A stretch of 33,882 bases of DNA, from assembly GCA_032718475.1 (NCBI GenBank), contig JAUCBJ010003522.1, positions 1 through 33,882 on the forward strand. The letters are read 5' to 3'. Under the pieces are notes generated by a model. That model was given only the letters and a program-made list of their open reading frames with translations, was not told the DNA's origin and searched no databases. A program made the position numbers and the translations under genes. The stretch comes from Nemertoderma westbladi (taxonomy: Eukaryota; Animalia; Xenacoelomorpha). Shown here piece after piece: positions 915 to 27,776 of the stretch. Position 1 is the first letter of the stretch. Every line of letters starts with the position of its first letter.

Positions 915-1165
915 TCCCTGTTAACAACTCTCCCGAATTGTGATCTGCCGACTACGAGTTGGTTAGATCGAGTTTGTTGTTTAATTAAACCACGACTTTG
1001 TCTCAACTCAAATACCAGAGTTTCCTCGTAGTGGGTGCTGGCAAGCACGTAGAGAGTTTTTGAAGAGTATTGAAGGATTCTCAACTTCCACCAGTTGAAG
1101 TTGACCGTAATTATCCTTAATTTTGACACCGTGTCAAAATTAACCGCATTAATTATTCTTAATTT

Positions 1166-2751
1166 TGTTGCCGTTATTCCTACACCAGGGGGAAAAACGC
1201 CGATGCTGGAGACGTGACTTAACAGACCACCGAGCCCCGGCCAGTCACCGGATATTGATTGTGGGGAGGGAATATTTCTAAGATGCAAGTTTGCGGTTGA
1301 GAAAAGCTGCATTAGTTGGATATACTCTTTAATGTAACTTCCTATAGTTGAAAACCTGATTAAGAATAATTTTGGGCTTCCCCAAATCAATATACACCAA
1401 ATATTCACAATAATTATACACGATAATATAAATCCCTACGGTATATTATTTAATAACCCACTGTTCGCTCAGAATTTTAGCCTACCTAATGTTCCCCAGA
1501 TTTTCCCTCAGTCCCAGTCTTAGTGCCGTAGTGTCGGTGTCGGTCGACCCTGTCGCGTGTCCGTTCCACCCCTCACGAACCCCGAAGGGAACGATCATCG
1601 AGAACCAGCCCGGCTTGGCTAAGGGTCGGTCCAGTCGGTAGACTCTGTCGCGTATCCGTACCACCCCTCTCGAACCCCGAAGGGTTCGGTCATCGAGAAC
1701 CAGTACGGCTTGGCTAAGAGTCTGTCGTGTCGGTGGACCCGTTCGCGTGTCCGTTCCACCCCTCACGAACCCCGAAGGGTTCGATCATCGAGAACCAGAA
1801 CGGCTTGGCTAGGGGTCCGTCAGTTCATTACAGAAACCCAACCACCTAGGCTTTCCGAGTCCGTTTCAGGCTCGTAGTCGCTTCGGCAGCCGAGAAACTG
1901 CTCCGAACGGTCGGTAGGCCAGTAGAGTCTAGTCGAGTCTAGTCCTTTGTCTTTCGACCCCATCGCGTGTCCGTTCCACCCCTCACGAACCCCGAAGGGA
2001 GCGATCATCGAGAACCAGAACGGCTTGGCTAAGGGGTCTGTCGTCGGTTCCCGTCGCAAATCCCAGTCAAGCAGTCAGCGTTCCGAGTTCTTTTCAGGCT
2101 CGTAGTAGCTGCAGTTGACCCGAGACCGCTAAGGGCAGTCCTTGTCAAACCAGTCCTGTGGCCAGCCCTTTCGCATGTCCGTCCCACCCCTCACGAACCC
2201 CGAAGGGATCGGTCATCGAGAACCAGTACGGCTTAGGTCAGGGGGCAGTCTTAAGTTGGCCACCTGTTCGCGTGTCCGCTCCACCCCTCACGAACCCCGG
2301 GGTTCGATCATCGAGAACCAGAACGGCTTGGCTACTAAGGGGCCGTCGGTGCCCGTCGCAAATCCCTGACACAAGCAGTCAGCGTTCCGAGTTCTTTTCA
2401 GTCTCGTAGTAGCTGCCGTTGGCCAGGGACCGCTAAGGGCAGTCCTTGTCCTTTAGGCCTGGCGCATTACCAAATCCACCCCTACAGGCAGCAGGAAGTT
2501 GGCCAGGGCCTAATAGTACTCAGGCTAACCTGAATACTGCTTGCATTTTCCATCCCCCCTGGCCCTTATAACTATGAAATTATTCCCGTACCCTGTAAGT
2601 TGCCCCAAAGTTCGCCCATAAATCGCCCCCAGTTTATTGAATGTGCCCAAAACCCATGGTCCCGCACCCAGTAGTAATATCGGAATAATCAATTTTAATA
2701 AAATACAAAAATATTCAACTCGCGTTATGGAAAGTTGAAATACCGCGAACA
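1166..2751 (-). repeat. 5' LTR of element A (TGTT...AACA; may extend to 1096)
   Basis: Homologous to 9595-11084 and 19799-20990; contains six ~70-nt core repeats starting near 1553, 1648, 1743, 1963, 2171 and 2268. Confidence 0.88.
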
Positions 2752-5700
2752 ATCGGAATCCCAGTAATTTACCGGTATCGGAATCCCAGTAACTTACCAG
2801 TGTCGGAATCCCAGTTAACTTACCGGTATCGGAATCCCAGCAACTTACCGGTATCGGAATCCCAGTAACTTACCGGTATCGGAATCCCAGTAACTTACCA
2901 GTGTCGGAATCCCAGTAACTTACCAGTGTCGGAATCCCAGTAACTTACCGGTATCGGAATCCCAGTAACTTACCAGTGTCGGAATCCCAGTAACTTACCA
3001 GTGTCGGAATCCCAGTAACTTACCGGTATCGGAATCCCAGTAACTTACCGGTATCGGAATCCCAGTAACTTACCGGTATCGGAATCCCAGTAACTTACCG
3101 GTATCGGAATCCCAGTAACTTACCGGTATCGGAATCCCAGTAACTTACCGGTATCGGAATCCCAGTAACTTACCGGTATCGGAATCCCAGTAACTTACCG
3201 GTAGCGGAATCCCAGTAACGTACCGGTATCGGAATCCCAGTAACTTACTGGTATCGGAATCCCAGTAACTTACCGGTATCGGAATCCCAGTAACTTACCA
3301 GTGTCGGAATCCCAGTAACTTACCGGTATCGGAATCCCAGTAACTTACCAGTGTCGGAATCCCAGTAACTTACCGGTATCGGAATCCCAGTAACTTACCG
3401 GTATCGGAATCCCAGTAACTTACCAGTGTCGGAATCCCAGTAACTTACCGGTATCGGAATCCCAGTAACTTACCGGTATCGGAATCCCAGTAACTTACCA
3501 GTGTCGGAATCCCAGTAACTTATCGGTATCGGAATCCCAGTAACTTACCAGTGTGGGAATCCCAGTAACTTACCGGTATCGGAATCCCAGTAACTTACCA
3601 GTGTCGGAATCCCAGTAACTTACCGGTATCGGAATCCCAGTAACTTACCAGTGTCGGAATCCCAGTAACTTACCAGTGTCGGAATCCCAGTAACTTACCA
3701 GTGTCGGAATCCCAGTAACTTACCGGTATCGGAATCTCAGTAACTTACCGGTATCCGAATCCCAGTAACTTACCGGTATCGGAATCCCAGTAACTTACCG
3801 GTGTCGGAATCCCAGTAACTTACCGGTATCGGAATCCCAGTAACTTACCGGTATCGGAATCCCAGTAACTTACCGGTATCGGAATCCCAGTAACTTAACA
3901 GTGTCGGAATCCCAGTAACTTACCGGTATCGGAATCCCAGTAACTTACCGGTATCGGAATCCCAGTAACTTACCGGTATCGGAATCCCAGTAACTTACCG
4001 GTATCGGAATCCCAGTAACTTACCGTTATCGGAATCCCAGTAACTTACCGGTAGCGGAATCCCAGTAACTTACCAGTGTCGGAATCCCAGTAACTTACCG
4101 GTATCGGAATCCCAGTAACTTACCGGTATCGGAATCCCAGTAACTTACCGGTATCGGAATCCCAGTAACTTACCAGTGTCGGAATCCCAGTAACTTACCG
4201 GTATCGGAATCCCAGTAACTTACCGGTATCGGAATCCCAGTAACTTACCAGTGTCGGAATCCCAGTAACTTACCGGTATCGGAATCCCAGCAACTTACCA
4301 GTGTCGGAATCCCAGTAACTTACCGGTATCGTAATCCCAGTAACTTACCAGTGTCGGAATCCCAGTAACTTACCGGTATCGGAATCCCAGTAACTTACCG
4401 GTATCGGAATCCCAGTAACTTACCAGTGTCGGAATCCCAGTAACTTACCGGTATCGGAATCCCAGTAACTTACCGGTATCGAAATCCCAGTAACTTACCG
4501 GTATCGGAATCCCAGTATCTTACCGGTATCGGAATCCCAGTAACTTACCGGTATAGGAATCCCAGTAACTTACCGGTATCGGAATCCCAGTAACTTACCA
4601 GTGTCGGAATCCCAGTAACTTACCGGTATCGGAATCCCAGTAACTTACCAGTGTCGGAATCCCAGTAACTTACCGGTATCGGAATCCCAGTAACTTACCA
4701 GTGTCGGAATCCCAGTAACTTACCGGTATCGGAATCCCAGTAACTTACCGGTATCGGAATCCCAGTAACTCACCAGTGTCGGAATCCCAGTAACTTAGCG
4801 GTATCGGAATCCCAGTAACTTACTAACTTACCGGTATCGGAATCCCAGTAACTTACCGGTGTCGGAATCCCAGTAACTTACCGGTATCGGAATCCCAGTA
4901 ACTTACCGGTATCCGAATCCCAGTAACTTACCGGTATCGGAATCCCAGTAACTTACCAGTGTCGGAATCCCAGTAACTTACCGGTATCGGAATCCCAGTA
5001 ACTTACCGGTATCGGAATCCCAGTAACTTACCGGTATCGGAATCCCAGTAACTTACCGGTATCGGAATCCCAGTAACTTACCGTTATCGGAATCCCAGTA
5101 ACTTACCGGTAGCGGAATCCCAGTAACTTACCAGTGTCGGAATCCCAGTAACTTACCGGTATCGGAATCCCAGTAACTTACCGGTATCGGAATCCCAGTA
5201 ACTTACCAGTGTCGGAATCCCAGTAACTTACCGGTATCGGAATCCCAGTAACTTACCGGTAGCGGAATCCCAGTAACTTACCGGTATCGGAATCCCAGTA
5301 ACTTACCGGTATCGGAATCCCAGTAACTTACCAGTGTCGGAATCCCAGTAACTTACCGGTATCGGAATCCCAGTAACTTACCAGTGTCGGAATCCCAGTA
5401 ACTTACCGGTATCGGAATCCCAGCAACTTACCAGTGTCGGAATCCCAGTAACTTACCGGTATCGGAATCCCAGTAACTTACCAGTGTCGGAATCCCAGTA
5501 ACTTACCGGTATCGGAATCCCAGTAACTTACCGGTATCGGAATCCCAGTAACTTACCAGTGTCGGAATCCCAGTAACTTACCGGTATCGGAATCCCAGTA
5601 ACTTACCGGTATCGGAATCCCAGTAACTTACCGGTATCGGAATCCCAGTAACTTACCAGTGTCGGAATCCCAGTAACTTACCGGTATCGGAATCCCAGTA

Positions 5701-7472
5701 ACTTACCAGTGTCGGAATCCCAGTAACTTACCGGTATCGGAATCCCAGTATCTTACCGGTATCGGAATCCCAGTAACTTACCGGTATCGGAATCCCAGTA
5801 ACTTACCGGTATCGGAATCCCAGTAACTTACCGGTATCGGAATCCCAGTAACTTACCGGTATCGGAATCCCAGTATCTTACCGGTATCGGAATCCCAGTA
5901 ACTTACCGGTATCGGAATCCCAGTAACTTACCGGTATCGGAATCCCAGTAACTTACCAGTGTCGGAATCCCAGTAACTTACCGGTATCGGAATCCCAGTA
6001 ACTTACCAGTGTCGGAATCCCAGTAACTTACCGGTATCGGAATCCCAGTAACTTACCGGTATCGGAATCCCAGTAACTTACCGGTATCGGAATCCCAGTA
6101 ACTTACCGGTATCGGAATCCCAGTAACTTACCGGTATCGGAATCCCAGTAACTTACCGGTATCGGAATCCCAGTAACTTACCAGTGTCGGAATCCCAGTA
6201 ACTTACCGGTATCGGAATCCCAGTAACTTACCGGTATCGGAATCCCAGTAACTTACCGGTATCGGAATCCCAGTAACTTACCGGTATCGGAATCCCAGTA
6301 ACTTACCAGTGTCGGAATCCCAGTAACTTACCGGTATCGGAATCCCAGTAACTTACCAGTATCGGAATCCCAGTAACTTACCGGTATCGGAATCCCAGTA
6401 ACTTACCGGTATCGGAATCCCAGTAACTTTCCGGTATCGGAATCCCAGTAACTTACCAGTGTCGGAATCCCAGTAACTTACCGGTATCGGAATCCCAGTA
6501 ACTTACCAGTGTCGGAATCCCAGTAACTTACCGGTATCGGAATCCCAGTAACTTACCGGTATCGGAATCCCAGTAACTTACCGGTATCGGAATCCCAGTA
6601 ACTTACCGGTATCGGAATCCCAGTAACTTACCGGTATCGGAATCCCAGTAACTTACCAGTGTCGGAATCCCAGTAACTTACCGGTATCGGAATCCCAGTA
6701 ACTTACCAGTGTCGGAATCCCAGTAACTTACCGGTATCGGAATCCCAGTAACTTACCGGTATCGGAATCCCAGTAACTTACCGGTATCGGAATCCCAGTA
6801 ACTTACCAGTGTCGGAATCCCAGTAACTTACCGGTATCGGAATCCCAGTAACTTACCGGTATCGGAATCCCAGTAACTTACCGGTATCGGAATCCCAGTA
6901 ACTTACCAGTGTCGGAATCCCAGTAACTTACCGGTATCGGAATCCCAGTAACTTACCAGTGTCGGAATCCCAGTAACTTACCGGTATCGGAATCCCAGTA
7001 ACTTACCGGTATCGGAATCCCAGTAACTTACCGGTATCGGAATCCCAGTAACTTACCGGTATCGGAATCCCAGCAACTTACCGGTATCGGAATCCCAGTA
7101 ACTTACCAGTGTCGGAATCCCAGTAACTTACCGGTATCGGAATCCCAGTAACTTACCAGTGTCGGAATCCCAGTAACTTACCGGTGTCGGAATCCCAGTA
7201 ACTTACCGGTATCGGAATCCCAGTAACTTACCGGTATCGGAATCCCAGTAACTTACCAGTGTCGGAATCCCAGTAACTTACCGGTATAGGAATCCCAGTA
7301 ACTTACCGGTATCGGAATCCCAGTAACTTACCGGTATCGGAATCCCAGTAACTTACCAGTGTCGGAATCCCAGTAACTTACCGGTATCGGAATCCCAGTA
7401 ACTTACCGGTATCGGAATCCCAGTAACTTACCGGTATCGGAATCCCAGTAACTTACCGGTATCGGAATCCCA
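2752..7472 (-). repeat. 25-bp tandem satellite (~189 units), minus-strand unit TGGGATTCCGATACCG|GTAAGTTAC, derived from a DAW1 exon/intron junction
   Basis: Period 25 is directly visible. The rightmost unit is the last 16 nt of exon 7457-7578 plus the first 9 intron nt. Confidence 0.97.
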
Positions 7473-9440: not shown

Positions 9441-9594
9441 TAAGGATGCAAGGCATATATGCTCCCTGGTTAGCCCCTTCAAACCATTCGTGCTAAATAT
9501 AAAACTGCATTGGCCCACATGGTGGGATCGAACCCACGACCTCCAGATAGATTGGAAATCAATGCAACCACTATACGTATACACCAAGGTGGAA
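9441..9594 (-). mobile_element. tRNA-derived SINE-like element (degenerate)
   Basis: Minus strand has A-box-like TAGTGG and B-box GGTTCGATCCC; a second diverged copy lies at 26100-26229. Confidence 0.7.
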
Positions 9595-11084
9595 TGTTGC
9601 CGTTATTCCCGACACCATGGGGGAAAAACGCCGATGCTGGAGGCGGAACTTTACAGACCACGGAATCCCGGCCAGTCACCGGATATTGATTGTGGAGAAG
9701 GAATAATTTCTTAGATGCAAGATTGCGGTTGAGAAAAAGCTGCATTGGTTGGATATATTCTTTAATGTAGTTAATCTCACTGAACCCTGATTGAGAATAA
9801 ATTGGGCTTCCCCAAATCAATATACACCAAATTATTCACAATAATAATACACGACAATATAAATCCCTACAGTAAATTATTTAATTACCCACTGTTCGCT
9901 CAGATTTTAGCCTAACTAATGTTCCCCAGATTTTCCCTCGGTCCTAGTCTTGGTGCCGTAGTGTCGGTGTCGGTCGACCCTGTCGCGTGTCCGTCCCACC
10001 CCTCACGAACCCCGAAGGGAACGATCATCGAGAACCAGTACGGCTTGGCTAAGGGTGGGTCCAGTCGGTAGACTCTGTCGCGTATCCGTACCACCCCTCT
10101 CGAACCCCGAAGGGATCGGTCATCGAGAACCAGTACGGCTTGGCTAGGAGTCTGTCGTGTCGGTGGACCCGTTCGCGTGTCCGTCCCACCCCTCACGAGC
10201 CCCGAAGGGAACGATCATTGAGAACCAGTACGGCTTGGCTAGGGGTCCGTCGGTTCATCGCAGAGACCCAACCACCTAGGCTTTCCGAGTCCTTATTCAG
10301 GCTCGTAGTCGCTTCGGCGGCCGAGAAACTGCTCCGAACAGTCGGTAGGCCAGTAGAGTCCAGTCCTCTGTCTTTCGACCCCGTCGCGTGTCCGTCCCAC
10401 CCCTCACGAACCCCGAAGGGAACGATCATCGAGAACCAGTACGGCTTGGCTAAGGGGTCTGTCGTCGGTTCCCGTCGCAAATCCCTGGCACAAGCAGCAG
10501 ACTTTCCGATGTCCTTTTCAGGCTCGTAATAACTGCTGTTGACCAGAGACCGCTAAGGGCAGTCCTCGTCAAACCCTTCCTCTGTTAGTCGGCCGCCCTT
10601 TCGCGTGTCCGTCCCACCCCTCGCGAACCCCGAAGGGATCGGTCATCGAGAACCAGTACGGCTTGGCTAAGGGGGCTGTCGTTTCCCGTCGCAAATCCCT
10701 GACACAAGCAGCAGACTTTCCGATGTCCTTTTCAGTCTCGTAATAACTGCTGTTGGCCAGGGACCGCTAAGGGCAGTCCTTGTCCTTTAGACCTAGCGAG
10801 TTACCAAATCCACCTCTACAGGCAGCAGGAAGTTGGCTAGGCCTAATAGTAATCAGGTAAACCTGAATACTGCTTAACTTTTCCTTCCCCCCTGGCCCTT
10901 ATATACATGAAATGAGTCCCGTACCCCGTAAGTCGCCCCAATATTCGCCCATAAATCGCCCCCAGTTCATAGAGTGTGCCCAAAACCCGTGGTCCCGCAC
11001 CCAGTAGTGATATCGGAATAATCATTTCAAATAAATACAAAAAATATTCAACTCGCGTTATGAAAAGTTGAAATACCGCGAACA
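9595..11084 (-). repeat. 3' LTR of element B (1490 bp)
   Basis: TGTT...AACA termini; preceded on the minus strand by a G-rich PPT; five core repeats near 9983, 10078, 10173, 10384 and 10601. Confidence 0.93.
10898..10905 (-). promoter_or_regulatory. Putative LTR TATA box (TATATAAG); equivalent at 20804-20811 and a variant near 2565-2572
   Basis: About 180 nt into the LTR, followed 25-30 nt later by an Inr-like GCAGT; implies a short U3 and a long transcribed R/U5. Confidence 0.55.
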
Positions 11085-11262: not shown

Positions 11263-12381
11263 CTATTTCTTTCTCTGATACGCCTTTCTCCTCTTCGCCC
11301 GTCGACTCTCATCGATCGCTAGAGCTGGTAGAGGAGCGTCAACATCCATCGTGAGCAATGCTTCGGCTTGTCTCCTGGTGGCTCTTCCTTTCGATGGCAA
11401 CGGGATCATATCGGTTCGTCGTTCCAACTCGGAGTTGCGAGCCTCGAGGAACCACTCTCCGTCACCGAACTCCTCTTTATACGAGTATAAGCGTCTAAGG
11501 ACTTCGAATGGGCTGAATAATCCGGCGCTCAGCAACAGATCCACGTAATGGAAAGGTAGCGGTGCCGTCGTATGGAGGCACTCCGGGAAGGAAAAATACC
11601 TGCATGCCATCTCCTGCGCGATATTCCGAGCGTTTCTCCGCACTTTGGTCCTTATATGGCTGCTTGCGTATGTTTCGAACATGACCATATTTCCCACAGC
11701 GGTAACGTCTTTTGTAGGACATTTTATATAGCAGCGGGGGCTAGCGGAATGTCCACGGAAACCGCACGTAGTGCAGAGGTTATAGAGGATCGGACAGACT
11801 GAAACATCGTGGCCCGATGTCGCGCAGTATGGGCAATAAAGTATCCCGAGGAGCTGGAGGCACGAATCGGGAACCCGATTTCGTCTACCGCGTGGGCACT
11901 GCTCCGAACCACAGTTACCGCACACCTCCAACTGCATCTCTCGACCGGGGAATATCGGAATCGGGACGCCGACGTAATACTCGAGTCGTCGGTCGCTCTT
12001 TTGAATATTTGCGGTGGCCGGTAGCCATCGGAAAGCTGGGCTTTTGCGTAGTAGGTCCTCGCTCCAATAACCTTCTTTATGTCCTGTCGGTCTCAACTCG
12101 GACAACCGTTTCTGGCGGAGGATCCATTCGGTCTGCTCGGCGTACCAACGGGTTAGTCGCATAGGATCCTGTGGAACGGAGGGGGTAGTAGTCACCGCTG
12201 GTCGGCGGAGAGGTGCCGGGGTTTTTGACGGAGGGATTCCGAGGAGATCGTCGGGAGTCGGCGCAGCGCTGGGACCCTTTTCAACCAGTATCGCTGAACG
12301 GGACCGTGAGTGCTGGTACTCGGAATCTCCGACGACCAGTCTTCGCCACCCGGGAAAGGATATGGGGATAACCTTTGGCAT
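11263..12381 (-). CDS. Extra ORF, C-terminal part: CCHC zinc-knuckle protein with a basic tail
   Basis: CPYCATSGHDVSVC (CX2CX4HX4C), CTTCGFRGHSASPRC and CGNC; ends RRAKRRKAYQRKK; overlaps the 474-aa ORF in the -1 frame. Confidence 0.7.
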   Translation of the reverse strand: MPKVIPISFPGWRRLVVGDSEYQHSRSRSAILVEKGPSAAPTPDDLLGIPPSKTPAPLRRPAVTTTPSVPQDPMRLTRWYAEQTEWILRQKRLSELRPTGHKEGYWSEDLLRKSPAFRWLPATANIQKSDRRLEYYVGVPIPIFPGREMQLEVCGNCGSEQCPRGRRNRVPDSCLQLLGILYCPYCATSGHDVSVCPILYNLCTTCGFRGHSASPRCYIKCPTKDVTAVGNMVMFETYASSHIRTKVRRNARNIAQEMACRYFSFPECLHTTAPLPFHYVDLLLSAGLFSPFEVLRRLYSYKEEFGDGEWFLEARNSELERRTDMIPLPSKGRATRRQAEALLTMDVDAPLPALAIDESRRAKRRKAYQRKK

Positions 12382-13670
12382 ATGTCGCCGAAGTCGTTTA
12401 ACGCAAAGGTAGTAACTAACTCCCTCGCAGGGCTACCGGAGCCGAGTGGCGCGGTAACCGCTTCCGTCGCAGGTTCGGCAGAGGCAACCCGTTTGGCTGC
12501 CGGTTGGTAAGCGGCTTCCGGCTCGAGTTGTCGCTTCGGGGTGGAGATTAGAACGCCCTCATGTAGCCATAGTTCTTCCCCTTCCGAAGAAATCAGAGGC
12601 TCTTCCGCCCCGAGAAGATCGGTAATCGTAGGGATGTCGTAAGGTCCGTTCTCGTCCCAGGAATAGATAACGGCGAGCGTTTTCGTCTCTCCCAGTGTGA
12701 TGTTCTCGACCGCTTTGAACGCGTGGTTTATAACCTTGTTCCAGTCGTAGTCGACAAAGGAAAGAGGAACCACCGTAATGAGGTTATCGAGGGTTTTACA
12801 GATAAATTTAGCGACGGTGTATGATTCCATAACGACGTAGATGTAGTTCCGTCTATCCGGCTTCTCCCACCTTTGGTGTATCGTCCACTTTCTCTCAACG
12901 TCCTTCCATCGACCCTCTCGCTCGCTCTTTATTTCTAATCCCGGGTATCCACCATATATTTTATTATAGTCCTGGAATTTCTGAGGTTTGAAGTCGATAC
13001 CGCCGTTTAGCACAGCGAGGTAGCCGATCCCGGATTTCGTTTGTCTCACCTCGCGGAAACCTCGTATGAATTCGGCGGATCGTAACCAGGCTAATAGCGT
13101 TTGGGTGTCGACGCAATGACTAAGGGCGTTGAGGTCGTCTCGCCGGTCTCTTCCTAAAGGAGCGTTCGCGTAGTCGTTCCGGACGTCCGCCTTTATATCC
13201 GACCCGATTTTAATGACGTCGAAGTCGAAGAGGATCTTTTGGATTTCCGGAGGTAGTAACCAGATCGCTCCGGCTGCCTGCACTTCCTGTCTGGGTGTCG
13301 GAAATATTCGACACACCAATACCAAACCGTCCAGGGTTCCGAGGACGACGACCAAGGATCGACCGTATTCTTTCGCCGCGTACTTTTCCTGGTAGTCGTC
13401 ACGATTCTGGATGATCAATATACGTTCCTCTCGTAGCATCGCCGTACACTCCGACAGGTTTCCCCAGTGGGCGAGGTACGTACTCTTGTCGTCGACGAAA
13501 CTTTGACATCCCGCCAACGTCATCGCTTTCGAGGTGGGCGTTGCGTTTCCCTCGTTGTCGTATATCAAACATCGGGATCTGTAGACGCTTTGCCGAAACG
13601 TTTCCCAATACGACAACTCATCCCCTCCGGTCCGGTAGCCTTTGCGTTCCGAGTTCTTTTCAGTCTCGTA
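12192..13670 (-). CDS. Extra ORF, central part: WRN/RNase D-like (DEDDy) 3'-5' exonuclease-fold protein
   Basis: LPPEIQKILFDFDVIKIGSDIKAD, CVDTQTL, SGIGYLA and RW..PDRRNYIYVVMES match the order of WRN-exo family motifs. The frame is open from 13670; the track start at 13616 is TTG. Confidence 0.65.
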   Translation of the reverse strand, partial: YETEKNSERKGYRTGGDELSYWETFRQSVYRSRCLIYDNEGNATPTSKAMTLAGCQSFVDDKSTYLAHWGNLSECTAMLREERILIIQNRDDYQEKYAAKEYGRSLVVVLGTLDGLVLVCRIFPTPRQEVQAAGAIWLLPPEIQKILFDFDVIKIGSDIKADVRNDYANAPLGRDRRDDLNALSHCVDTQTLLAWLRSAEFIRGFREVRQTKSGIGYLAVLNGGIDFKPQKFQDYNKIYGGYPGLEIKSEREGRWKDVERKWTIHQRWEKPDRRNYIYVVMESYTVAKFICKTLDNLITVVPLSFVDYDWNKVINHAFKAVENITLGETKTLAVIYSWDENGPYDIPTITDLLGAEEPLISSEGEELWLHEGVLISTPKRQLEPEAAYQPAAKRVASAEPATEAVTAPLGSGSPARELVTTFALNDFGDICQRLSPYPFPGGEDWSSEIPSTSTHGPVQRYWLKRVPALRRLPTISSESLRQKPRHLSADQR

Positions 13671-13864
13671 CTAGCATCGGCCAACCGGAGGGCTCGTAGA
13701 TTCCAGGAATCCGGTCCCTCTCGCCCGCAGAATTTGACGACTCGCACATTCTCATTTATCAGGGTGCTCCAATTTGTATTAAAGTTAGGGGATCCGGGTT
13801 GTGGATATTCCAGTAGATCTATCATATTACGTAATTCGCCGATAATTTGGCGATTTGGGTCCAT
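13565..13864 (-). CDS. 99-aa ATG-initiated ORF, possible N-terminus of the extra ORF (frame switch)
   Basis: First ATG after the AT-rich spacer; overlaps the exonuclease-like frame. Confidence 0.45.
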   Translation of the reverse strand: MDPNRQIIGELRNMIDLLEYPQPGSPNFNTNWSTLINENVRVVKFCGREGPDSWNLRALRLADASTRLKRTRNAKATGPEGMSCRIGKRFGKASTDPDV

Positions 13865-14417: not shown

Positions 14418-14845
14418 TGGAAGGGGTGTTACGCAGCAATCTGGGATCTACAGCTGGGCTAGTTACACCGCCTATGCCCCAAACTGCACACGTAACGGAC
14501 AATGAAGACGCTGGGAGTGAAGTCACGTGGATTGCACCAGGGACCCACCAGAATAACACTCCCAACAACATAAAGCTCAGCCGACGAAGTCATGTGGGAT
14601 GGGGTTACGCAACATTCTGGGATCTACAGCTGGACTAGTTACACCACCTACGCCCCAAAATCCACGCAATGGTCCCACCAGAATAACGCGACTGAGAAAC
14701 ATAAAACCTCTATCGTCGAAGTCATGTGGATGCACCATGGACCCACCAGAATAACGGGATAGAGGGGGTATTGCGCGGCAATCCGGGATCTACAGCCGGA
14801 CTAGTTACACCGCCTACGCCCCGAACTGCACACGCAACGGACAAC
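14418..14845. repeat. Three diverged ~60-80-nt direct repeats between pol and the extra ORF
   Basis: Core tcyggGATCTACAGcyggrCTAGTTACACCrCCTAyGCCCC near 14440, 14616 and 14782. Confidence 0.85.
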
Positions 14846-15117: not shown

Positions 15118-17679
15118 TTAAACGGGTTTAGCATTGTCACCAATGTCTGCAGCAGGATCCTTAGTAGGGAAATTATCACCTCTCGTAGAGTCACCACTGT
15201 CATTGCCTTCAAGAAGGCACAGCCTCTGGATAGGGCGTTGGTAGTGGCCCTTTGCCGTTCGTATCGTCACAGTCCTCGCAAGTCCGTCTTTGGTCGGTTG
15301 TATTGCCACGACTCGCGCCACAGGCCAGTGGACGCGGTCTTTGAGGTCTTCTTTGACCAGCACCATGTCGCAAATTTCGACATTCCTGTAGGTGTTGTTC
15401 CACTTCCTCCTGGTCCGGAGGGTTATGAGGTACTCCTGGGCCCAGATTCTCCACCAATGCGCTGCCAACGCTTGGGCCTTCTTCCAGTTAGTATGTCTTG
15501 CAATATCGTCGGGATCCGGAAACATCGTCTCTGGGAGAATATGGGTTTTGCGTCTTCCCAGGAGGTGGTTAGGAGTGAGAGGCTCCAGGTCTGTGGGGTC
15601 GTCGCGGATAGGGACAATGGGCCGGTTGTTCAGGGTAGCCGTGATCTCGCAGAATGTTGTGCGGAGGGTGTCATGGGTTACCCGGGTGTCTCCTAATGCG
15701 ACGCGCATGGATCGTTTTACTAAGTCGATCAGCTTCTCCCATACCCCGCTCGTATGGGGTGCTAAGGGTGTTTGAAAGTGCCACTGTATGTGGTGGTCCC
15801 TCCAGACTTGGGATGCGGTGTCCTCGGTAAACCATCCCTCGATCGCCTCTCTAAGTTCTCTTTCTCCTCCCACAAAGTTTGTACCGTTATCGGAGTACAT
15901 ATGACGACATGTCCCGTTGTTCGCCACGAACCGACGCAGGGCGTTGATGAATGCGTGTTGCGTAAGGTTCACCACAATGTCTAGGTAGATTGCCCTAGAC
16001 GTAAGGCAGGTAAAGATGGCTCCCCAGCATTTGATGTTGGATCGTCGCTCGATGACCGTAAACGGTCCGAAACAGTCCACTCCGGTGACGTAGAACGGTG
16101 GGGAATCGGACTGTAGACGTGTGGCTGGTAAGTCTGCCATCTTTTGCGTGAGTGGTGGCGCTAGATACCTTCTGCAGGGAAAGCAACGTTTCAACACTTT
16201 CCGGATCAGTGGCTGGATGTGGGTGATCCAATATCTTTGTCTTATATTAGCTATAATCCAGTTCTGTCCTGCGTGATGGTTTTCCTCGTGACACTGTTGA
16301 ATTAATAGCTTGGCTAGTGTCGACGTTCCGGGCAGAAGTGCCGGGTATTTAACCTCATATTCAACCGGGGCGTTTGCCATCCGGGTATTCAGTCGGATCA
16401 GTCCGTCCTCTCCCATCATTGGTCTCAGTTGGTAGACTGGGCTGTCCGGTTTCAAAGTCTTGCCCGCACTGAGTTGTTCCCACTCATCGGGGAAACTTTC
16501 TCTCTGGACATATCCAACAATACACTTCTCCGCGATAATGAGTTCTTGTATGCTCCGTTTATCTATCAGCTTGTTGTCTTTCCACCGTAGGAAATTGCGA
16601 AGGGTAATAACGTGGTGGACGAGCCGTCTCATTGATGAAGTTCGCTCGATCAACAGATGTAAGGACGCCGCTGGTTGAGTGATCGTCGCGACGTTATAGT
16701 GCCTGCCCGAGTCCTTTGCAGGCTCGGTCAGACAACTATAAATTTCCACTGCGTTGCTTCTATGGACTTTACGGATCTCTTTGTCGTCCTCGGAGTATTT
16801 TCCGCTATCGAGTTCGGGATCGAATCGAGTACTCCATGTTAATTGTGGTTGTTGTAGGAATTCCGGGCCTGTAAGCCAGAGTTTACTCTTACCGAGTTGT
16901 TTTGGGGTGGCGCCTCGGCTTGATAAGTCCGCTGGATTTTCTTTCCCGTTCACGTGGTGCCACTGTTCTCGGCTGGTGCATTGTTTTATCTCCGTGGCTC
17001 GGTTCGCTACAAACGTGTGTCGCCGTGATGGTGAATGGAGGTTGGTTGCCGAACAGTAACCCACGGAGGTTGCATTCTCTTTAATCTGACATTTCGGAAG
17101 GTATGTATAGGTATCTGTAGTCTCTTCCTTGATGCCGCAGAGTGTCCATCCCATTATTGTTCGTTCAGCGTAAAAGCCGTCATCCTGCTTTATAGATCGG
17201 GCGACGTCTCCGGTGGGTATGTGTAATTCCGGTGTATCAAGTCCGATCAGTAAGGTGATGCGGTTTACATCCAACGGTGGGCACCTTAGGTCTACATCGT
17301 CTCGGTCCAACTGTATGAGGGGGGCATACTCGGCTGATTGTCGGAACCGCACTCGTAGGTTGGTGTGTACCAAGGCGTTCTCGATGGTCAGCTTAACTGT
17401 CTCGTAGCCCTTCATTACTCCTTCCATCTGGAGCTGCACCTCCCCGGATTCTACCTCTCTATGGTCGGTGATAGTTTGTATGGGCCGTTTGCAAGGTTCA
17501 TAGTCTAGGCCAAGTTGCTCGAGGAAATCCCGGTCGATGATGGTTCCGTCCGACCCGTTATCAAGGAAAGCGAGCGTCGTCAAGGATTTGCCGACCCCTT
17601 GAATTCTTACTGGGATTACTTTGGCGAAGACCATGTAACGGCGATTTATAAGGTTGATCTTGGCTGAGATATTTGTCAC
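15118..17679 (-). CDS. pol: BEL/Pao pol remnant: aspartic protease, RNase H C-terminal end and complete integrase; no RT
   Basis: FLDNGSDGT; AERTIMGW; FVANR..EI...WHHVNGKENPADLSSRG; HEENHHAG...CFPC; VDCFGP, SDNGTNF, GVWE; LTPNHLL; WPVARV...DGLAR...RPIQRLCLL. No YVDD RT motif. Confidence 0.93.
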   Translation of the reverse strand: MTNISAKINLINRRYMVFAKVIPVRIQGVGKSLTTLAFLDNGSDGTIIDRDFLEQLGLDYEPCKRPIQTITDHREVESGEVQLQMEGVMKGYETVKLTIENALVHTNLRVRFRQSAEYAPLIQLDRDDVDLRCPPLDVNRITLLIGLDTPELHIPTGDVARSIKQDDGFYAERTIMGWTLCGIKEETTDTYTYLPKCQIKENATSVGYCSATNLHSPSRRHTFVANRATEIKQCTSREQWHHVNGKENPADLSSRGATPKQLGKSKLWLTGPEFLQQPQLTWSTRFDPELDSGKYSEDDKEIRKVHRSNAVEIYSCLTEPAKDSGRHYNVATITQPAASLHLLIERTSSMRRLVHHVITLRNFLRWKDNKLIDKRSIQELIIAEKCIVGYVQRESFPDEWEQLSAGKTLKPDSPVYQLRPMMGEDGLIRLNTRMANAPVEYEVKYPALLPGTSTLAKLLIQQCHEENHHAGQNWIIANIRQRYWITHIQPLIRKVLKRCFPCRRYLAPPLTQKMADLPATRLQSDSPPFYVTGVDCFGPFTVIERRSNIKCWGAIFTCLTSRAIYLDIVVNLTQHAFINALRRFVANNGTCRHMYSDNGTNFVGGERELREAIEGWFTEDTASQVWRDHHIQWHFQTPLAPHTSGVWEKLIDLVKRSMRVALGDTRVTHDTLRTTFCEITATLNNRPIVPIRDDPTDLEPLTPNHLLGRRKTHILPETMFPDPDDIARHTNWKKAQALAAHWWRIWAQEYLITLRTRRKWNNTYRNVEICDMVLVKEDLKDRVHWPVARVVAIQPTKDGLARTVTIRTAKGHYQRPIQRLCLLEGNDSGDSTRGDNFPTKDPAADIGDNAKPV

Positions 17680-17773
17680 TTGTGATGCATCAGTTTTAAA
17701 CGGGTTGGTTTCTCTCCGTTGGGTTGTCCGGGTTCCTTTAGAAACGTGGTTCGTTTCTCCTCTTCGCTTGGCT

Positions 17774-19403
17774 TCAATCCGAAAGGGGAGGGTGGTTTAG
17801 AATGTTGTTTACTTGTTCCTCCTTATTTAATGGTTTTAGAGTGTAGTAGGCATCCTTCATCGAATCTGAGAATTCTTGGATATTCTGTGGGTCCCCTAGG
17901 GATCCCGCGTCCTGTATCAGTTTCTCGAGAGTTTTATTAATTATAGTCCCGATATTTCCGTATCTTTTATCTAGAGTTTTCCATGCGTCATAGTATGCCT
18001 CATGAGCTCCTCCCTCAAAGCATGCGATAATTCGGTGTGGTTTGTCACCCAGGTATTGTGATAAATATACCAGTTTCTGTGCGTCGGCTATGTCCGTTGA
18101 TCCAATCTGCGCAAAGAACCGTTTCTTGAATCTGAGGTAATCGACGGGATCTCCTTCGAAGGGATGTAAACGGGTTGTTGGATCGGGGAGTGGCGATCCG
18201 TTCCGAGTCCTTTTCAGGCTCGTACTTGGGGACGCTCGGGACCGTGGGAGTGGCTGGGATATAAGGTTCCTCATTCTTTAGCGTAACAGGTGGGGGATGG
18301 AATACCGGTGCTTGTGCCGATAACGTAGACTGTATGGTAGGCGGGAACTCGGGTTTCGGGGGTTTCACCGTCGGTGTCGTTAATGACTTCTCTAATTCTG
18401 GTATCGGTATTGGTTCATAGTTCTGATCTATATCCCTTTCCCAGTCCTCGTATATTTGAATATCTCGTTCTATGAGTGCGGCTTCGTATTCCGCGAGTTT
18501 CGCAATATCCGCATTCTTTTTGTGTATGAGAATCGCTTGGGCCTCGGCGTATTGTTTACGCATTTCTGCTTCCCATTTACGTTGTTCGATCTCTTGTTGG
18601 GCCTCTCATCCACGTTGTTCAGCTTCCTGTTCACGTTGTTCGGCCTGCCGTTGGGCTTCCTGTTCACGTTGTTCGGCCTGCCGTTTGGCCTCTCGCCTAT
18701 GTTGTTCAGCTTCCTGTTCACGTTGTTCGGCCTGCCGTTTGGCCGCTTGCTCGGCCTCTTGTTTTTGCATTTCAGCGGCTAATACATCTTGCTCGGTTCG
18801 CAGTTGAACATACTCATCTTCCATCCGAGCTTTGAGGGCTAATGCCTTCTGTTCTCGTAGCTGATCTCGGAGTGGCTGACCCCCTTGAGAACTGCGCGCT
18901 GAGCCGGATATCTCGCTCCTAGCGCTGGAGTGCTGGTGTCTTGAGGACCCCGTTCTCTTTCGATGAATTGTGGTCCTAGTGTTGGAGGTTTGCACTGATT
19001 CTGCGTCTGTTCTTTCAGCTTTCTTGTAGTACTGTTCCTCGTAGCCTCTCACGAGGCTGAGGGTCCTCCGGTGTTGTTTGCGGAATTCGTCTAGGCGTGC
19101 AACGTGTTCTTCCAATTTGGGGTAGTTTACCTGGTCGGTGGCGGGGATGAGTTCTCGGTACGCCTGTATCATTCTCTCATATCGTTGTAAGATACTTCGG
19201 ATATTCTGAAGCTGAGTTTGTATCTCGTTGAGGGGGGTTTCGACTCCCTTGAGTTGTTTCTCTATACGTTGATACGCTCGAGTGACTCCGCCTTTGAGAG
19301 CACCTAGTCGACGGGCCATGTTCTTGACATTCGGTACCTCGTCGGCTTCCGAGTCTGTGTGGTGATCCATCTCATCAGTATCGGATACGTTATTCGTCGT
19401 CAT
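17774..19403 (-). pseudogene. gag: gag of element B, disrupted
   Basis: Coiled-coil N-terminus; in-frame TGA at 18606-18608 (CGA in the equivalent repeats); +1 frame switch within 18170-18277 into DUF1759-like FEGDPVDYLRF...QKLVYLSQYL...LDKRYG; another +1 switch near 17780-17798; no CCHC knuckles. Confidence 0.85.
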
Positions 19404-19591
19404 TGTAGCGCCTCGTCGATAGCTAGATGTGCGATGTCGTAAAATAGTTCCTCGTAGGTATTGTACTCAGCCTGGACCACCCGAACGGTAATCCTGAATC
19501 GTCCGACGTTCGTTCCTTGTACTTCAACCTCGACGTGCCAGATTCCTGGCTCAACTTGGATTATATCAATTGGTGTGATCGATACTTCCAT
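19400..19591 (-). CDS. 63-aa ORF upstream of gag (element B), unknown function
   Basis: Conserved with 723-914; ATGA overlap with gag. Confidence 0.8.
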   Translation of the reverse strand: MEVSITPIDIIQVEPGIWHVEVEVQGTNVGRFRITVRVVQAEYNTYEELFYDIAHLAIDEALQ

Positions 19592-19798
19592 TCCCTGTTA
19601 ACAACTCTCCAAATATGTGATCTGCCGACTACGAGTTGGTTAGATCGAGTTTGTTGATTAATTAAACCACGACTTTGTCTTAACTCAAATACCAGAGTTT
19701 CCTTGTAGTGGGTGCTGGTAAGCACGGAGAGAGTTTGAAGAGTATTGTAGGATTCCCAACTTCCACCAGTTGAAGTTGGCGCGTTTTATTCTCAATTT

Positions 19799-20990
19799 TG
19801 TTGCCGTTATTCCCGACACCATGGGGGAAAAACGCCGATGCTGGAGGCGGAACTTTACAGACCACAGAATCCCGGCCAGTCACCGGATATTGATTGTGGA
19901 GAAGGAATAATTTCTTAGATGCAAGATTGCGGTTGAGAAAAAGCTGCATTGGTTGGATATATTCTTTAATGTAGTTAATCTCACTGAACCCTGATTGAGA
20001 ATAAATTGGGCTTCCCCAAATCAATATACACCAAATTATTCACAATAATAATACACGACAATATAAATCCCTACAGTAAATTATTTAATTACCCACTGTT
20101 CGCTCAGATTTTAGCCTAACTAATGTTCCCCAGATTTTCCCTCGGTCCTAGTCTTGGTGCCGTAGTGTCGGTGTCGGTCGACCCTGTCGCGTGTCCGTCC
20201 CACCCCTCACGAACCCCGAAGGGAACGATCATCGAGAACCAGTACGGCTTGGCTAAGGGTCGGTCCAGTCGGTAGACTCTGTCGCGTATCCGTACCACCC
20301 CTCACGAACCCCAAAGGGAACGATCATCGAGAACCAGTACGGCTTGGCTAAGGGGTCTGTCGTCGGTTCCCGTCACAAATCCCTGGCACAAGCAGCAGAC
20401 TTTCCGATGTCCTTTTCAGGCTCGTAATAACTGCTGTTGACCAGAGACCGCTAAGGGCAGTCCTCGTCAAACCCTTCCTCTGTTAGTCGGCCGCCCTTTC
20501 GTGTGTCAGTCCCACCCCTCGCAAACCCCAAAGGGATCGGTCATCGAGAACCAGTACGGCTTGGCTAAGGGGGCTGTCGTTTCCCGTCGTAAATCCCTGA
20601 CACAAGCAGCAGACTTTCTGATGTCCTTTTCAGGCTCGTAATAACTGCTGTTGGCCAGGGACCGCTAAGGGCAGTCCTTGTCCTTTAGACCTAGCGAGTT
20701 ACCAAATCCACCTCTACAGGCAGCAGGAAGTTGGCTAGGCCTAATAGTAATCAGGTAAACCTGAATACTGCTTAACTTTTCCTTCCCCCCCCCCCCCCTG
20801 GCCCTTATATACATGAAATGAGTCCCGTACCCCGTAAGTCGCCCCAATATTCGCCCATAAATCGCCCCCAGTTCATAGAGTGTGCCCAAAACCCGTGGTC
20901 CCGCACCCAGTAGTGATATCGGAATAATCATTTTAAATAAATACAAAAAATATTCAACTCGCGTTATGAAAAGTTGAAATACCGCGAACA
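19799..20990 (-). repeat. 5' LTR of element B (1192 bp; may extend to 19771)
   Basis: Near-identical to 9595-11084 except a ~305-bp deletion between core repeats, a longer C run and about a dozen substitutions. Confidence 0.93.
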
Positions 20991-22479
20991 CGGGACATCC
21001 CTATTTGTAAGCACCACTGTCCACAGCAAAAAAGAACATCAAAAACACAAAAATTTCTATATATTTTGCTATTTTCGGAAACAGCGCCAACATTCTGCTG
21101 TAACAAAAGCAAAAAAAGAAGATCACTTGTGAAAAGTGTTCACTTATTGGTGCTTGTTTGGTCATTTATCTCGCATTGGCTTTTTTGGAACACTTTATCT
21201 ATCCACTTATTAACTACTCAAAGTACTCACGTCTCACACTACTCAACTGATTTTCGTTATGTTTGCAGAATTATGTAGTTCTGTTTGCAAAAATGGCATT
21301 GACAGAATTTTTATAAAAGTAATTGTTTAGTTGCGAAATAAAAAATATCGAAATTAGAACGAAAATTAATATTTGGTCGCCAAATTGGGAAGGCTGGGCC
21401 CACAAAGTGGAAAACAAAATCCAGCATAATAATGACATAACAAAACGAAAAAATAACGTAACGAAAAAATGTCAAACGAAACTAAAAAAGAAATAAAAAT
21501 GTTTGTAAATAACGAAACGAAATGAAAAAACGAATTAATAGTGTTTCGTTAGTTAAATTTTTCGTTTCGTTTCGTTAAATTAAAAAGTTATTAATAATTA
21601 CGATATCAATTTATTAATATATTGAAATAATTGAAAAATTATAAATGATATTATATCCTTAATTACTGTAATGTAAACAGATTAAATTATTTCCTTCTAT
21701 ACAGCCAACCTTTATTGCCTACCAGTTTCCGTTACTATTGCAATACAAAAGATCTCGCCAAGCCATTTTCAGATTGGAAATCCTCATTAAATTATGCTCA
21801 ATTCCGTAGCATACAGGTATAATATGATGATAAAACACCAAGTCACTTGGCGAAATTTCAATTTTTAATTTTCTGCTAATAGTAAAAAACCGAAAGTCAA
21901 AAGACACAAATTTCATAAAACCTTTCTTAATCTTAATTATCAATGCAATAACATATTTCAATAAAACCGTATGTGCGTTTTCTTATTATCTATGCAATGA
22001 CAAAAAACCACAAGTCTTGTTGACTTACGGTTTTTTTTGCCTAAATTTAAATAGTTGCGATCTTTTGTATTGCACTTACGGTCTTTTACCTTTGTAACAT
22101 TCACTATATGCATACGCTAGGATACGGAGTGACTTAAGGCCTTTTTACATAGAATATCTCGAGAACTAAAGTAGATACGGTGTTCTCTATCATACCATTA
22201 GATCGAGCGCATTTTTTAGACTCAGGAAAAGTGAAAAATTAATTTTGGAAAAATGACACTTATGGTCTTTTCACATTGCACGGCAGATATGGCCTGACCA
22301 GACATATGGTAATCTACCAATGGCTGGTCAGGAGTAGAGTGCTCTCATCTCAAATTTGAGTGCACTCCACGGCGATCTACACCTGGCTGCAGAGTGCAGG
22401 GCATGGCCCAGTGGATGAGCTGCATAGCCAATGGTAGGTGCTTCATAGTATGTATGGGTGATGGGCCCCATATGTGACC

Positions 22480-24034: not shown

Positions 24035-24726
24035 GTCCTATATGGTCCTTCAGACACGATTGGCGTCCTATATGGTCCTTCAGACAGGATTGGCGTCCTA
24101 TATGGTCCTTCAGACACGATTGGCGTCCTATATGGTCCTTCAGACAGGATTGGCGTCCTATATGGTCCTTCAGACAGGATTGGCGTCCTATATGGTCCTT
24201 CAGACAGGATTGGCGTCCTATATGGTCCTTCAGACAGGATTGGCGTCCTATATGGTCCTTCAGACAGGATTGGCGTCCTATATGGTCCTTCAGACAGGAT
24301 TGGCGTTCTATATGGTCCTTCAGACAGGATTGGCGTCCTATATGGTCCTTCAGACAGGATTGGCGTCCTATATGGTCCTTCAGACAGGATTGGCGTCCTA
24401 TATGGTCCTTCAGACAGGATTGGCGTCCTATATGGTCCTTCAGACAGGATTGGCGTCCTATATGGTCCTTCAGACAGGATTGGCGTCCTATATGGTCCTT
24501 CAGACAGGATTGGCGTCCTATATGGTCCTTCAGACAGGATTGGCGTCCTATATGGTCCTTCAGACAGGATTGGCGTCCTATATGGTCCTTCAGACAGGAT
24601 TGGCGTCCTATATGGTCCTTCAGACAGGATTGGCGTCCTATATGGTCCTTCAGACAGGATTGGCGTCCTATATGGTCCTTCAGACAGGATTGGCGTCCTA
24701 TATGGTCCTTCAGAGAGGATTGGCGT
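24035..24726. repeat. 30-bp minisatellite (~23 near-identical units, gtcctatatggtccttcagacaggattggc)
   Basis: Period 30 seen directly. Confidence 0.97.
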
Positions 24727-26989: not shown

Positions 26990-27776
26990 GTGAGCGCGGT
27001 GAGAGTGCGGTGAGAATGCGGTGAGAGTGCGGTGAGAGTGCGGTGAGAGTGCGGTGTGAGTGCGGTGAGAGTGCGGTGAGAGTGCGGTGAGAGTGCGGTG
27101 CGAGTGCGGTGAGAGTGCGGTGTGAGCGCGGTGAGAGTGCGGTGTGAGTGCGGTGAGAGTGCGGTGAGAGTGCGGTGAGAGTGCGGTGAGAGTGCGGTGA
27201 GGGTGCGGTGAGAGTGCGGTGAGCGTGCGGTGAGAGTGCTGTGAGAGTGCGGTGAGAGTGCGGTGAGAGTGCGGTGAGAGTGCGGTGCGAGTGGAGTGCG
27301 GTGAGAGTGCGGTGTGACGGCGGTGAGAGTGCGGTGAGAGTGCGGTGAGAGTGCGGTGCGAGTGCGGTGAGAGTGCGGTGAGAGTGCGGTGAGAGTGCGG
27401 TGAAAGTGCGGTTAGAGTGCGGTGAGAGTGCGGTGAGAGCGCAGTGAGAGCACGGTGAGAGCGCGGTGAGAGTGCGGTGAGAGTGCGGTGAGAGTGCGGT
27501 GAGAGTGCGGTGAGAGTGCGCTGAGAGTGCGGTTAGAGTGCGGTGAGAGTGCGGTGAGAGCGCAGTGAGAGCACGGTGAGAGCGCGGTGAGAGTGCGGTG
27601 AGAGTGCGGTGAGAGTGCGGTGAGAGTTCGGTGAGAGTGCGGTGAGAGTGCGGTGAGAGTGCGGTTAGAGTGCGGTGAGAGTGCGGTGAGAGCGCAGTGA
27701 GAGCACGGTGAGAGCGCGGTGAGAGTGCGGTGAGAGTGCGGTGAGAGTGCGGTGAGAGTGCGGTGAGAGTGCGGTG
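26990..27776. repeat. 11-bp minisatellite (gagagtgcggt, ~70 units)
   Basis: Seen directly; its translation repeats every 11 aa (3 units). Confidence 0.97.

Follow-up and report, generated by a model that had tools for sequence, protein, structure and literature searches.

A modular array of predicted RNA hairpins in the long terminal repeats of BEL/Pao retrotransposons from Nemertoderma westbladi

Several cis-acting RNA devices of retroelements offer points of comparison for the locus described here. The Rec-responsive element (RcRE) of HERV-K (HML-2) lies in U3 and binds an accessory protein (PMC11379458), and constitutive transport elements (CTEs) and the MusD transport element (MTE) act without an accessory protein or via tertiary folds (PMC10746203, PMC3362945). 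The self-primer of Tf2 is placed at the front of R and is cut off by reverse transcriptase (RT) (PMC5341516); self-priming has been described for Tf1/Sushi and, as a proposal, for some copia lineages (PMC6317226). Box C/D-type kink-turns (k-turns) fold only with protein (PMC5579392), and a further study reports DEDDy-type third open reading frames (ORF3s) in bdelloid retrotransposons that carry long terminal repeats (LTRs), their activity being putative (PMC5408684). Here we analyse a window of 33,882 nucleotides (nt), the whole of positions 1 to 33,882 on the forward strand of contig JAUCBJ010003522.1 in the Nemertoderma westbladi assembly GCA_032718475.1. The window carries two related BEL/Pao LTR retrotransposons, both on the minus strand, and each of their three LTRs contains an array of hairpin modules. 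This array is a real and undescribed modular RNA element, of the kind formed by the cis-acting RNA signals of LTR elements. In the literature searched, neither a comparable array in BEL/Pao nor RNA signals for BEL/Pao packaging, export or priming are described.

All three LTRs have TG..CA termini. Apart from a deletion in the array, LTR2 and LTR3 are 97-98.6% alike, whereas LTR1 and LTR2 diverge by approximately 10%.

1166..2751, minus strand: LTR1, the 5' LTR of the first BEL/Pao element, which runs past the window start; module order E D B A A B A C A A A
9595..11084, minus strand: LTR2, the 3' LTR of the second (inner) element, preceded by a purine tract; module order E D B A B A C A A A
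19799..20990, minus strand: LTR3, the 5' LTR of the inner element; module order E D B A B A A, the middle A being a type-4/type-2 chimera produced by a deletion

The most frequent module, termed A, is found 14 times on the minus strand, with six, five and three copies in LTR1, LTR2 and LTR3, respectively. These counts agree with a preliminary description of this DNA, as does a core that was put at about 70 nt and measures 69 nt in 13 of the 14 units. A covariance model built from the 14 units recovers those same units at 86-114 bits, and the next best match in the window reaches 12 bits. The predicted plan comprises an outer helix, a UA/GA internal loop, two G-C pairs, a 4x4 loop, a helix, a k-turn pattern and a UUCG hairpin. 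The UUCG loop had been presented as a feature of the unit in general, but is present in 11 of the 14 copies. The units of LTR1 are the following.

1540..1632, minus strand: A unit type 1 (covariance model, folding)
1635..1727, minus strand: A unit type 2 (covariance model, folding)
1730..1822, minus strand: A unit type 3 (covariance model, folding)
1950..2043, minus strand: A unit type 4 (covariance model, folding)
2156..2250, minus strand: A unit type 5, with a degenerate base (folding)
2250..2345, minus strand: A unit type 6, with a loop deletion and an AGUA/GAA loop at its base (folding)

The flanks of the core were originally said to differ between units while remaining complementary. Across the six unit types, cognate flanks form 33 paired positions, a value matched or exceeded by 8 of 720 permutations (mean 25.8), which supports a covarying outer helix. 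However, this helix extends for 6-7 base pairs (bp) in types 1-4 and is shorter elsewhere, at 4 bp for type 5, 3 bp for type 6 and 2 bp for the chimeric unit of LTR3. Among five unit types, cores differ at 2-8 of 69 positions and flanks at 4-14 of 21. Between LTR1 and LTR2, divergence is 2-8% for A types 1-4 and 12% for type 5; elsewhere it amounts to 12% over the first 210 nt plus the last 205 nt of the LTR and to 24% (22/91) at four-fold sites of gag.

A pseudoknot proposed for the A unit is not borne out, given that the loop and downstream strands assigned to it also form an ordinary nested helix. Folding with ViennaRNA, which scores no pseudoknots and hence bears on the matter indirectly, assigns this nested helix a probability above 0.93 in 12 of the 14 units, and in 12 of 14 it gives the 5-bp hairpin required by the pseudoknot a probability below 0.01. 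The pseudoknot and nested models are not separated by pair counts, the share of paired cells being 87.0% in one and 87.3% in the other. A value of 87% is reached by none of 500 shuffles, a contrast that is inflated by the relatedness of the rows. The pseudoknot's own 5-bp hairpin shows no two-sided change among the 14 units, and the loop/downstream pair cited as covarying is A-U in three, U-A in three and a purine-purine mismatch in eight, the mismatches having been omitted when the pair was put forward. In the nested fold, the GCGA tail of the unit provides two G-C pairs and one half of the UA/GA internal loop. Module B has the same closing UA/GA loop and competing G-C pairs without the 5-bp hairpin. 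Because these shared features account for the tail, its suggested likeness to the hepatitis delta virus (HDV) ribozyme is unsupported. For each A unit we infer a nested-hairpin fold that includes a UA/GA loop and a k-turn.

The k-turn sequence pattern (C stem, 3-nt bulge, tandem G.A, NC stem) that had been noticed in the core is present in 14 of 14 cores. It arises in 0.36% of 20,000 shuffles of one core, a frequency that applies to a pattern chosen after the sequence had been seen. Position 3b.3n is never Watson-Crick, being U.U in nine units, C.A in two, C.C in two and C.U in one (n = 14). On these sequence features a k-turn in the A units is plausible. In most A units (five in LTR1 and three in LTR2) the box-D-like strand reads GUGAG, which resembles a splice donor; the word has been lost from type 2 units and some type-5 copies. 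Two known RNA classes were considered for the unit and rejected. Selenocysteine insertion sequence elements have an 11-12-bp helix II and an unpaired AAR in the apical loop, whereas the helix above the G.A tandem spans seven positions here and is closed by UUCG. Box C/D small nucleolar RNAs (snoRNAs) carry RUGAUGA and CUGA boxes plus a guide; the boxes are matched here in part, and there is no Rfam match.

The A units alternate with other hairpin modules that share the UA/GA internal loop and that the preliminary description had missed.

1822..1912, minus strand: module C, an irregular hairpin with a reversed UA/GA loop, an S-turn-type loop and a GNRA-type apex
2044..2145, minus strand: module B, second copy, with a basal UA/GA loop as in A, a long helix, an S-turn-type loop and a GNRA apex
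2345..2446, minus strand: module B, first copy, folding z-score -4.7
2450..2512, minus strand: module D hairpin, with one two-sided change relative to LTR2
2511..2542, minus strand: module E, a short hairpin directly after an upstream TATA-like box

Module B has folding z-scores of -2.6 to -4.7 in five of six copies and -1.4 in the remaining one. For 18 of 19 modules the sense-strand z-score is lower than that of the antisense strand (means -2.1 and -0.5). A search of Rfam, which had been recommended as a check, returned no match at the gathering score anywhere in the window. At E-values up to 10, the best matches around LTR1 and LTR2 have E 1.6 and 6.1, and the hits listed within this limit (traJ-II, HgcG, ST7-OT3_1 and sR32) are at chance level and were rejected. 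The earlier proposal of a selected, strand-specific RNA fold that has no Rfam match is thus supported by the strand-biased folding, the covariation of the outer helix and the empty Rfam search.

Other identities and relatives of the array were also sought. The A unit starts with an A-box-like word, and a tRNA origin was rejected, with ARAGORN finding 0 genes. On its antisense strand, module D has a 10-nt overlap with the core of the signal peptide-responsive element (SPRE) (PMC8579622), which we discounted as coincidental. Searches for homologues of the unit gave six loci in viral contigs (best 8 bits with the unit model), one locus in metagenomes (L001, which the unit model does not list at E up to 5) and none in prokaryote genomes, so that these collections yielded no homologue outside the present family. 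These null results say little about the range of the array, because the viral, metagenome and prokaryote collections contain little animal DNA. Six short array motifs are absent from 2.0 million characters of the supplements to a BEL/Pao survey, which represent part of its library (PMC3118150).

The apex of modules B and C is a stem-loop in which four pairs and then a bulged A lead to a short stem with a GNRA or five-base loop; it generally sits on an S-turn-type loop. A model built from 11 copies of this stem-loop, all of them on the sense strand, recovers eight within the LTRs and three at internal sites, with the next best match at 9 bits. A 20-nt apex pattern likewise matches the three internal sites, and has no match in the 15,006 nt outside the elements.

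18190..18236, minus strand: apex copy within gag, AGUA/GAA loop (pattern and model)
16694..16740, minus strand: apex copy within pol, GCAA loop and longer helix (pattern and model)
13636..13682, minus strand: apex copy at the 5' edge of the exonuclease-like open frame (ORF3), AGUA/GAA loop (pattern and model)

When the three internal copies are read in one frame, their six shared codons keep all third positions, with amino acids varying at three. In the pol copy GCAA replaces GAAA, such that GNRA is kept. Because third codon positions are fixed while amino acids vary, these alignments point to selection acting on the nucleic acid. The coding status of the ORF3 copy is uncertain because it lies at the very start of the open frame. 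One stem-loop repeated in coding regions with conservation at the nucleotide level is the sequence arrangement found for dispersed packaging signals.

The position of the array on the element RNA can be approached through the primer site. After neither 5' LTR is there a tRNA-type primer site. In its place, the primer-site position, which starts 2 nt beyond the LTR, is matched by a complementary LTR segment downstream of the array, 13 nt long for LTR1 and 12 nt for LTR3.

1359..1371, minus strand: putative self-primer segment of LTR1, 13 nt, pairing with 1151-1163
1151..1163, minus strand: primer-site position, 2 nt after LTR1, without a tRNA-type TGG (sequence comparison)
19994..20005, minus strand: putative self-primer segment of LTR3, 12 nt, pairing with 19785-19796 and showing two compensatory changes relative to LTR1
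1328..1333, minus strand: candidate poly(A) signal ATTAAA downstream of the primer segment (sequence); a second ATTAAA lies at 1449-1454
2564..2571, minus strand: upstream TATA-like box, candidate promoter (sequence); a better match is present in LTR2 and LTR3

Duplexes of this quality are reached in 1 of 2000 shuffles for LTR1 and 2 of 2000 for LTR3, the 3' LTR control gives 7 nt, and the duplex carries two compensatory changes between subfamilies. A complementary LTR segment combined with the absence of a tRNA site is the sequence arrangement of Tf1-type self-priming. A primer made by splicing was rejected: the complementary stretch is unbroken, which makes splicing unnecessary, and no strong donor is kept in both LTR1 and LTR2. 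Just after the LTR1 primer site, at approximately 1117-1143, a near-perfect 27-nt palindrome accompanies a short duplication; it is absent after LTR3.

Under Tf1-like priming, whatever lies upstream of the cut would come from the 3' LTR. On this model the array likely belongs to the functional U3 and is inherited from the 3' end of the RNA. Everything upstream of 1359 would then derive from the 3' LTR, and the array would work as a U3 element of the 3' untranslated region (UTR). The preliminary description had the array probably at both ends of the genomic RNA, which is doubtful with the self-priming-type duplex lying downstream of the array. It had also treated a location in untranscribed U3 as incompatible with an RNA function. 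This was mistaken, since the genomic RNA of retroelements includes the U3 of their 3' LTR.

Our preferred reading, whose chances we judge to be about even, is that the array groups protein-docking sites in the 3' part of the element RNA, which they would mark for packaging or nuclear export. Such a cluster is the likely alternative to a ribozyme, and among the roles suggested at the outset a packaging array or an export element fits best. The k-turn of the A unit would bind a host protein of the L7Ae family (Snu13/15.5K), which might bend the RNA or shield it. In modules B and C, the reader of the GNRA stem-loop would be a protein encoded by the element, Gag being the simplest candidate, and the stem-loop could act as a packaging tag that is both dispersed and clustered. 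A more elaborate version, which we consider unlikely, is that this BEL/Pao lineage has evolved its own RNA-protein system in the manner of Rev and the Rev response element (RRE). In that system a U3 scaffold of k-turns, S-turn loops and GNRA stem-loops would recruit the host Snu13-family protein together with the exonuclease/zinc-knuckle product of ORF3, and the tag would be dispersed in the genes. The element's exonuclease could also trim its own RNA back to the primer-site duplex, thereby making a tRNA-free primer.

Several results weigh against the docking interpretation. Nine of the 14 A units miss a folding z-score of -2, just five falling below this value when folded by themselves. ViennaRNA, whose energy model lacks a k-turn term, favours an alternative register over that of the k-turn by 5.4 kcal/mol. 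Covariation within the apex stem-loop is not significant (87/500 shuffles). Comparison of LTR1 with LTR2 reveals 19 broken pairs where 25 are expected (P 0.064) or 16 where 25 are expected (P 0.013), and the share of changes that keep pairs does not reach significance (P 0.23 and 0.13). The sequences all belong to two subfamilies approximately 10% apart within one window, and most columns are invariant and hence uninformative. In addition, the low divergence of the cores could come from gene conversion or recent duplication, and a good TATA match lies upstream of the array, with no clear one at the primer segment. Finally, sequence does not distinguish between packaging, export and stability.

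That TATA match, a serious competing start, underlies a different arrangement, also unlikely, in which transcription starts about 30 nt after the upstream box and the array is present at the 5' end of the RNA as well. The array might then act as an IRES-like (internal ribosome entry site) or TAR-like (trans-activation response) leader, or form an LTR-only structured RNA of about 1.1 kb, later being cut off as a primer tail. Hairpin E right after the box, the TATA matches in LTR2 and LTR3, and the ATTAAA with a GT-rich stretch just after the array favour this arrangement. However, leaders starting from the upstream TATA would be long and contain 13 upstream AUGs in the element of LTR1 and six in that of LTR3, compared with three for a start at the primer segment. 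The apex stem-loop also occurs in coding regions, where an IRES role is unlikely, and the primer-site duplex is found where Tf2 has its self-primer, at the front of R (PMC5341516).

Somewhat less probable is a role of the array in shielding the 3' region of the RNA from decay, as an exonuclease block or a deadenylation shield that possibly works with the exonuclease-like protein of the element. The 3' UTR position, if self-priming holds, and the exonuclease-like ORF of the element would suit this role, but the pseudoknot that exonuclease-resistant RNAs need is unsupported here, and copies of the apex in coding regions suit a tag better than a roadblock. In the Evade retrotransposon, an expression and nuclear retention element (ENE) within the 3' UTR makes the RNA more stable (PMC12501189), yet the array sequence contains no ENE-style U-rich internal loop.

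There is a slimmer chance that the repeats act as DNA, in the form of U3 enhancers, factor sites or G-quadruplex-prone runs, or that they are neutral products of unequal recombination, with folding as a by-product. U3 is where enhancers lie, an RGCCAA word recurs across modules A, B and D, and each A unit has four G-runs. Copy number varies freely, a pattern for which we propose recombination between units, and LTR3 holds fewer units, among which there persists the chimera, whose outer helix is broken. The pair test across the two subfamilies is also weak. Arguing the other way are the two-sided changes in the outer helix and in module D, the strand-biased folding in 18 of 19 modules, and the recurrence of RNA loop motifs across contexts, including the GNRA loop kept in pol. 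With regard to copy number, three low-depth contigs of sequencing run X1 were compared with positions 1100-2800 and indicate presence only. One of them, of 886 nt, represents an LTR form joined across 1591-2305 that keeps D, B and just one A unit. A further short contig of the run matches both the B apex and an A core, pointing to a diverged related family.

Ribozyme motifs were also searched for. A relaxed HDV descriptor (a nested double pseudoknot, P1-P2-P3-L3-P1'-P1.1-J4/2-P2') gives 12, 0 and 3 overlapping sense hits in LTR1, LTR2 and LTR3, which do not fall at equivalent places in the units, and an HDV-like ribozyme was rejected on this lack of per-unit recurrence and of an Rfam match. 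The hammerhead CUGANGA core and the twister loop are absent on both strands, and words of the hairpin and pistol ribozymes occur on the antisense strand only, with no Rfam match. A self-cleaving A unit, as a ribozyme of some undescribed class onto which B or C docks, is very improbable: its strongly conserved 69-nt core within a variable closing helix would fit such an RNA, but no Rfam ribozyme family appears at E up to 10, neither a hammerhead or twister core nor a per-unit HDV fold was found, and several cuts in U3 would presumably separate the RNA both from its poly(A) end and from the R that strand transfer needs.

The elements belong to BEL/Pao, as indicated by a DUF1759 gag, a protease, an integrase with DUF5641 and the TG..CA LTRs. 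Their coding regions are as follows.

15118..19466, minus strand: gag-pol region, fragmented, with the Pfam domains DUF1759, aspartyl protease, integrase zinc domain and DUF5641, lacking the RT/RNase H part
11263..13670, minus strand: extra ORF region (ORF3) in two frames (12192-13670 and 11263-12432), with a DEDD/WRN-type exonuclease-like and a Cys-rich (zinc-knuckle-like) domain; weakly assigned

The closest relatives of the integrase region are 37-44% identical and come from marine invertebrates, fish and other assemblies. About 110 nt stand where a full-length relative has approximately 550 residues; RT and RNase H being missing, the inner element is not an autonomous BEL/Pao copy. No target-site duplication was found flanking the LTR3-LTR2 element (9585-9594 and 20991-21000). 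The spacer between pol and ORF3 (approximately 14450-14830, minus strand) contains three copies of a word of about 25 nt within longer repeats.

Both frames of ORF3 resemble a single protein, P0122, which combines an exonuclease-like part with a Cys-rich part, and the region has an arginine/lysine-rich C-terminus. Two relatives were found among 1.8 billion representatives (E 2e-6 and 9e-4), one of which has both domains in one protein. A Pfam exonuclease match (E 0.2) is obtained on a relative only, and comparison with the Atlas gives 0.90 to a WRN-like cluster, below the recognition level of that cluster. In this copy the first catalytic motif finds no match, structure predictions have a predicted local distance difference test (pLDDT) score of 32-33, a word-index search gave no match among 7,994 candidates, and PDB sequence searches returned nothing useful. 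From its sequence, ORF3 is weakly assigned as a DEDD exonuclease.

Further repeats occur elsewhere in the window. A 25-bp satellite of 188.5 copies at 2752-7472 adjoins the start of LTR1, and a short stretch near the LTR start resembles it. Tandem arrays of 30 bp and 11 bp and a 630-nt inverted repeat (95% identity) lie at 24035-24726, 26996-27776 and 32409-33882.

BEL/Pao elements are abundant in animals, and the array family offers defined candidates, namely a 69-nt k-turn hairpin, a 20-nt GNRA stem-loop in LTRs and genes, and a covarying self-primer. If the docking interpretation is true, a mobile element that carries k-turns in a natural tandem array would put the host Snu13/15.5K protein to a new use. 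The value of the array is limited until a relative outside the family or a binding partner is found. Its parts can nonetheless be set beside known systems. Dispersed packaging signals and short protein-binding stem-loops are exemplified by the MS2 operator and lambda boxB. The apex resembles these in being a short stem-loop that has a bulged A, ends in a GNRA or five-base loop and is repeated, conserved at the nucleotide level, in coding regions; it differs in having just three internal copies plus an LTR cluster within larger hairpins, its binding being putative. Pao is reported, going by the title of one paper alone, to have tandem copies of a putative R region, a description that counts in favour of the 5'-leader arrangement above. 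This would make Pao a BEL/Pao LTR with internal tandem repeats as well, whereas the repeats here are of several structured kinds and probably lie in the functional U3.

The predicted k-turn shares with those of box C/D snoRNAs and U4 small nuclear RNA a C-G pair at -1, a U-ended 3-base bulge, tandem G.A pairs and a non-Watson-Crick 3b.3n (PMC5579392). It differs from the box C/D pair in its next pair, which is C-G, in having no guide region and in its context of an RNA polymerase II retroelement. The primer arrangement is like that of Tf1/Tf2 in lacking a tRNA primer site and in pairing an LTR segment with the position just after the LTR, and differs in having a BEL/Pao rather than a Ty3/gypsy or copia host and a putative primer; neither the passages on Tf1/Tf2 (PMC5341516, PMC6317226) nor the literature searched contain a self-priming BEL/Pao case. 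As in the bdelloid DEDDy elements (PMC5408684), an extra ORF of exonuclease type follows pol in an LTR element, with the difference that the host is BEL/Pao, a Cys-rich domain is added and the first catalytic motif is unmatched here.

The broadest likeness is to the RcRE, the CTE of Mason-Pfizer monkey virus (MPMV) and the MusD MTE, which are structured cis-elements at the 3' end of an LTR element RNA (PMC11379458, PMC10746203, PMC3362945). This comparison concerns architecture, sequence likeness having been neither tested nor seen. The array differs from all three in its tandem organization, its at least four module types, its variable copy number and its BEL/Pao host, and its export activity is putative. 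It comes closest to the RcRE, which lies in U3 and binds an element-encoded accessory protein (PMC11379458), in that the array probably occupies U3 and the element here has an extra ORF.

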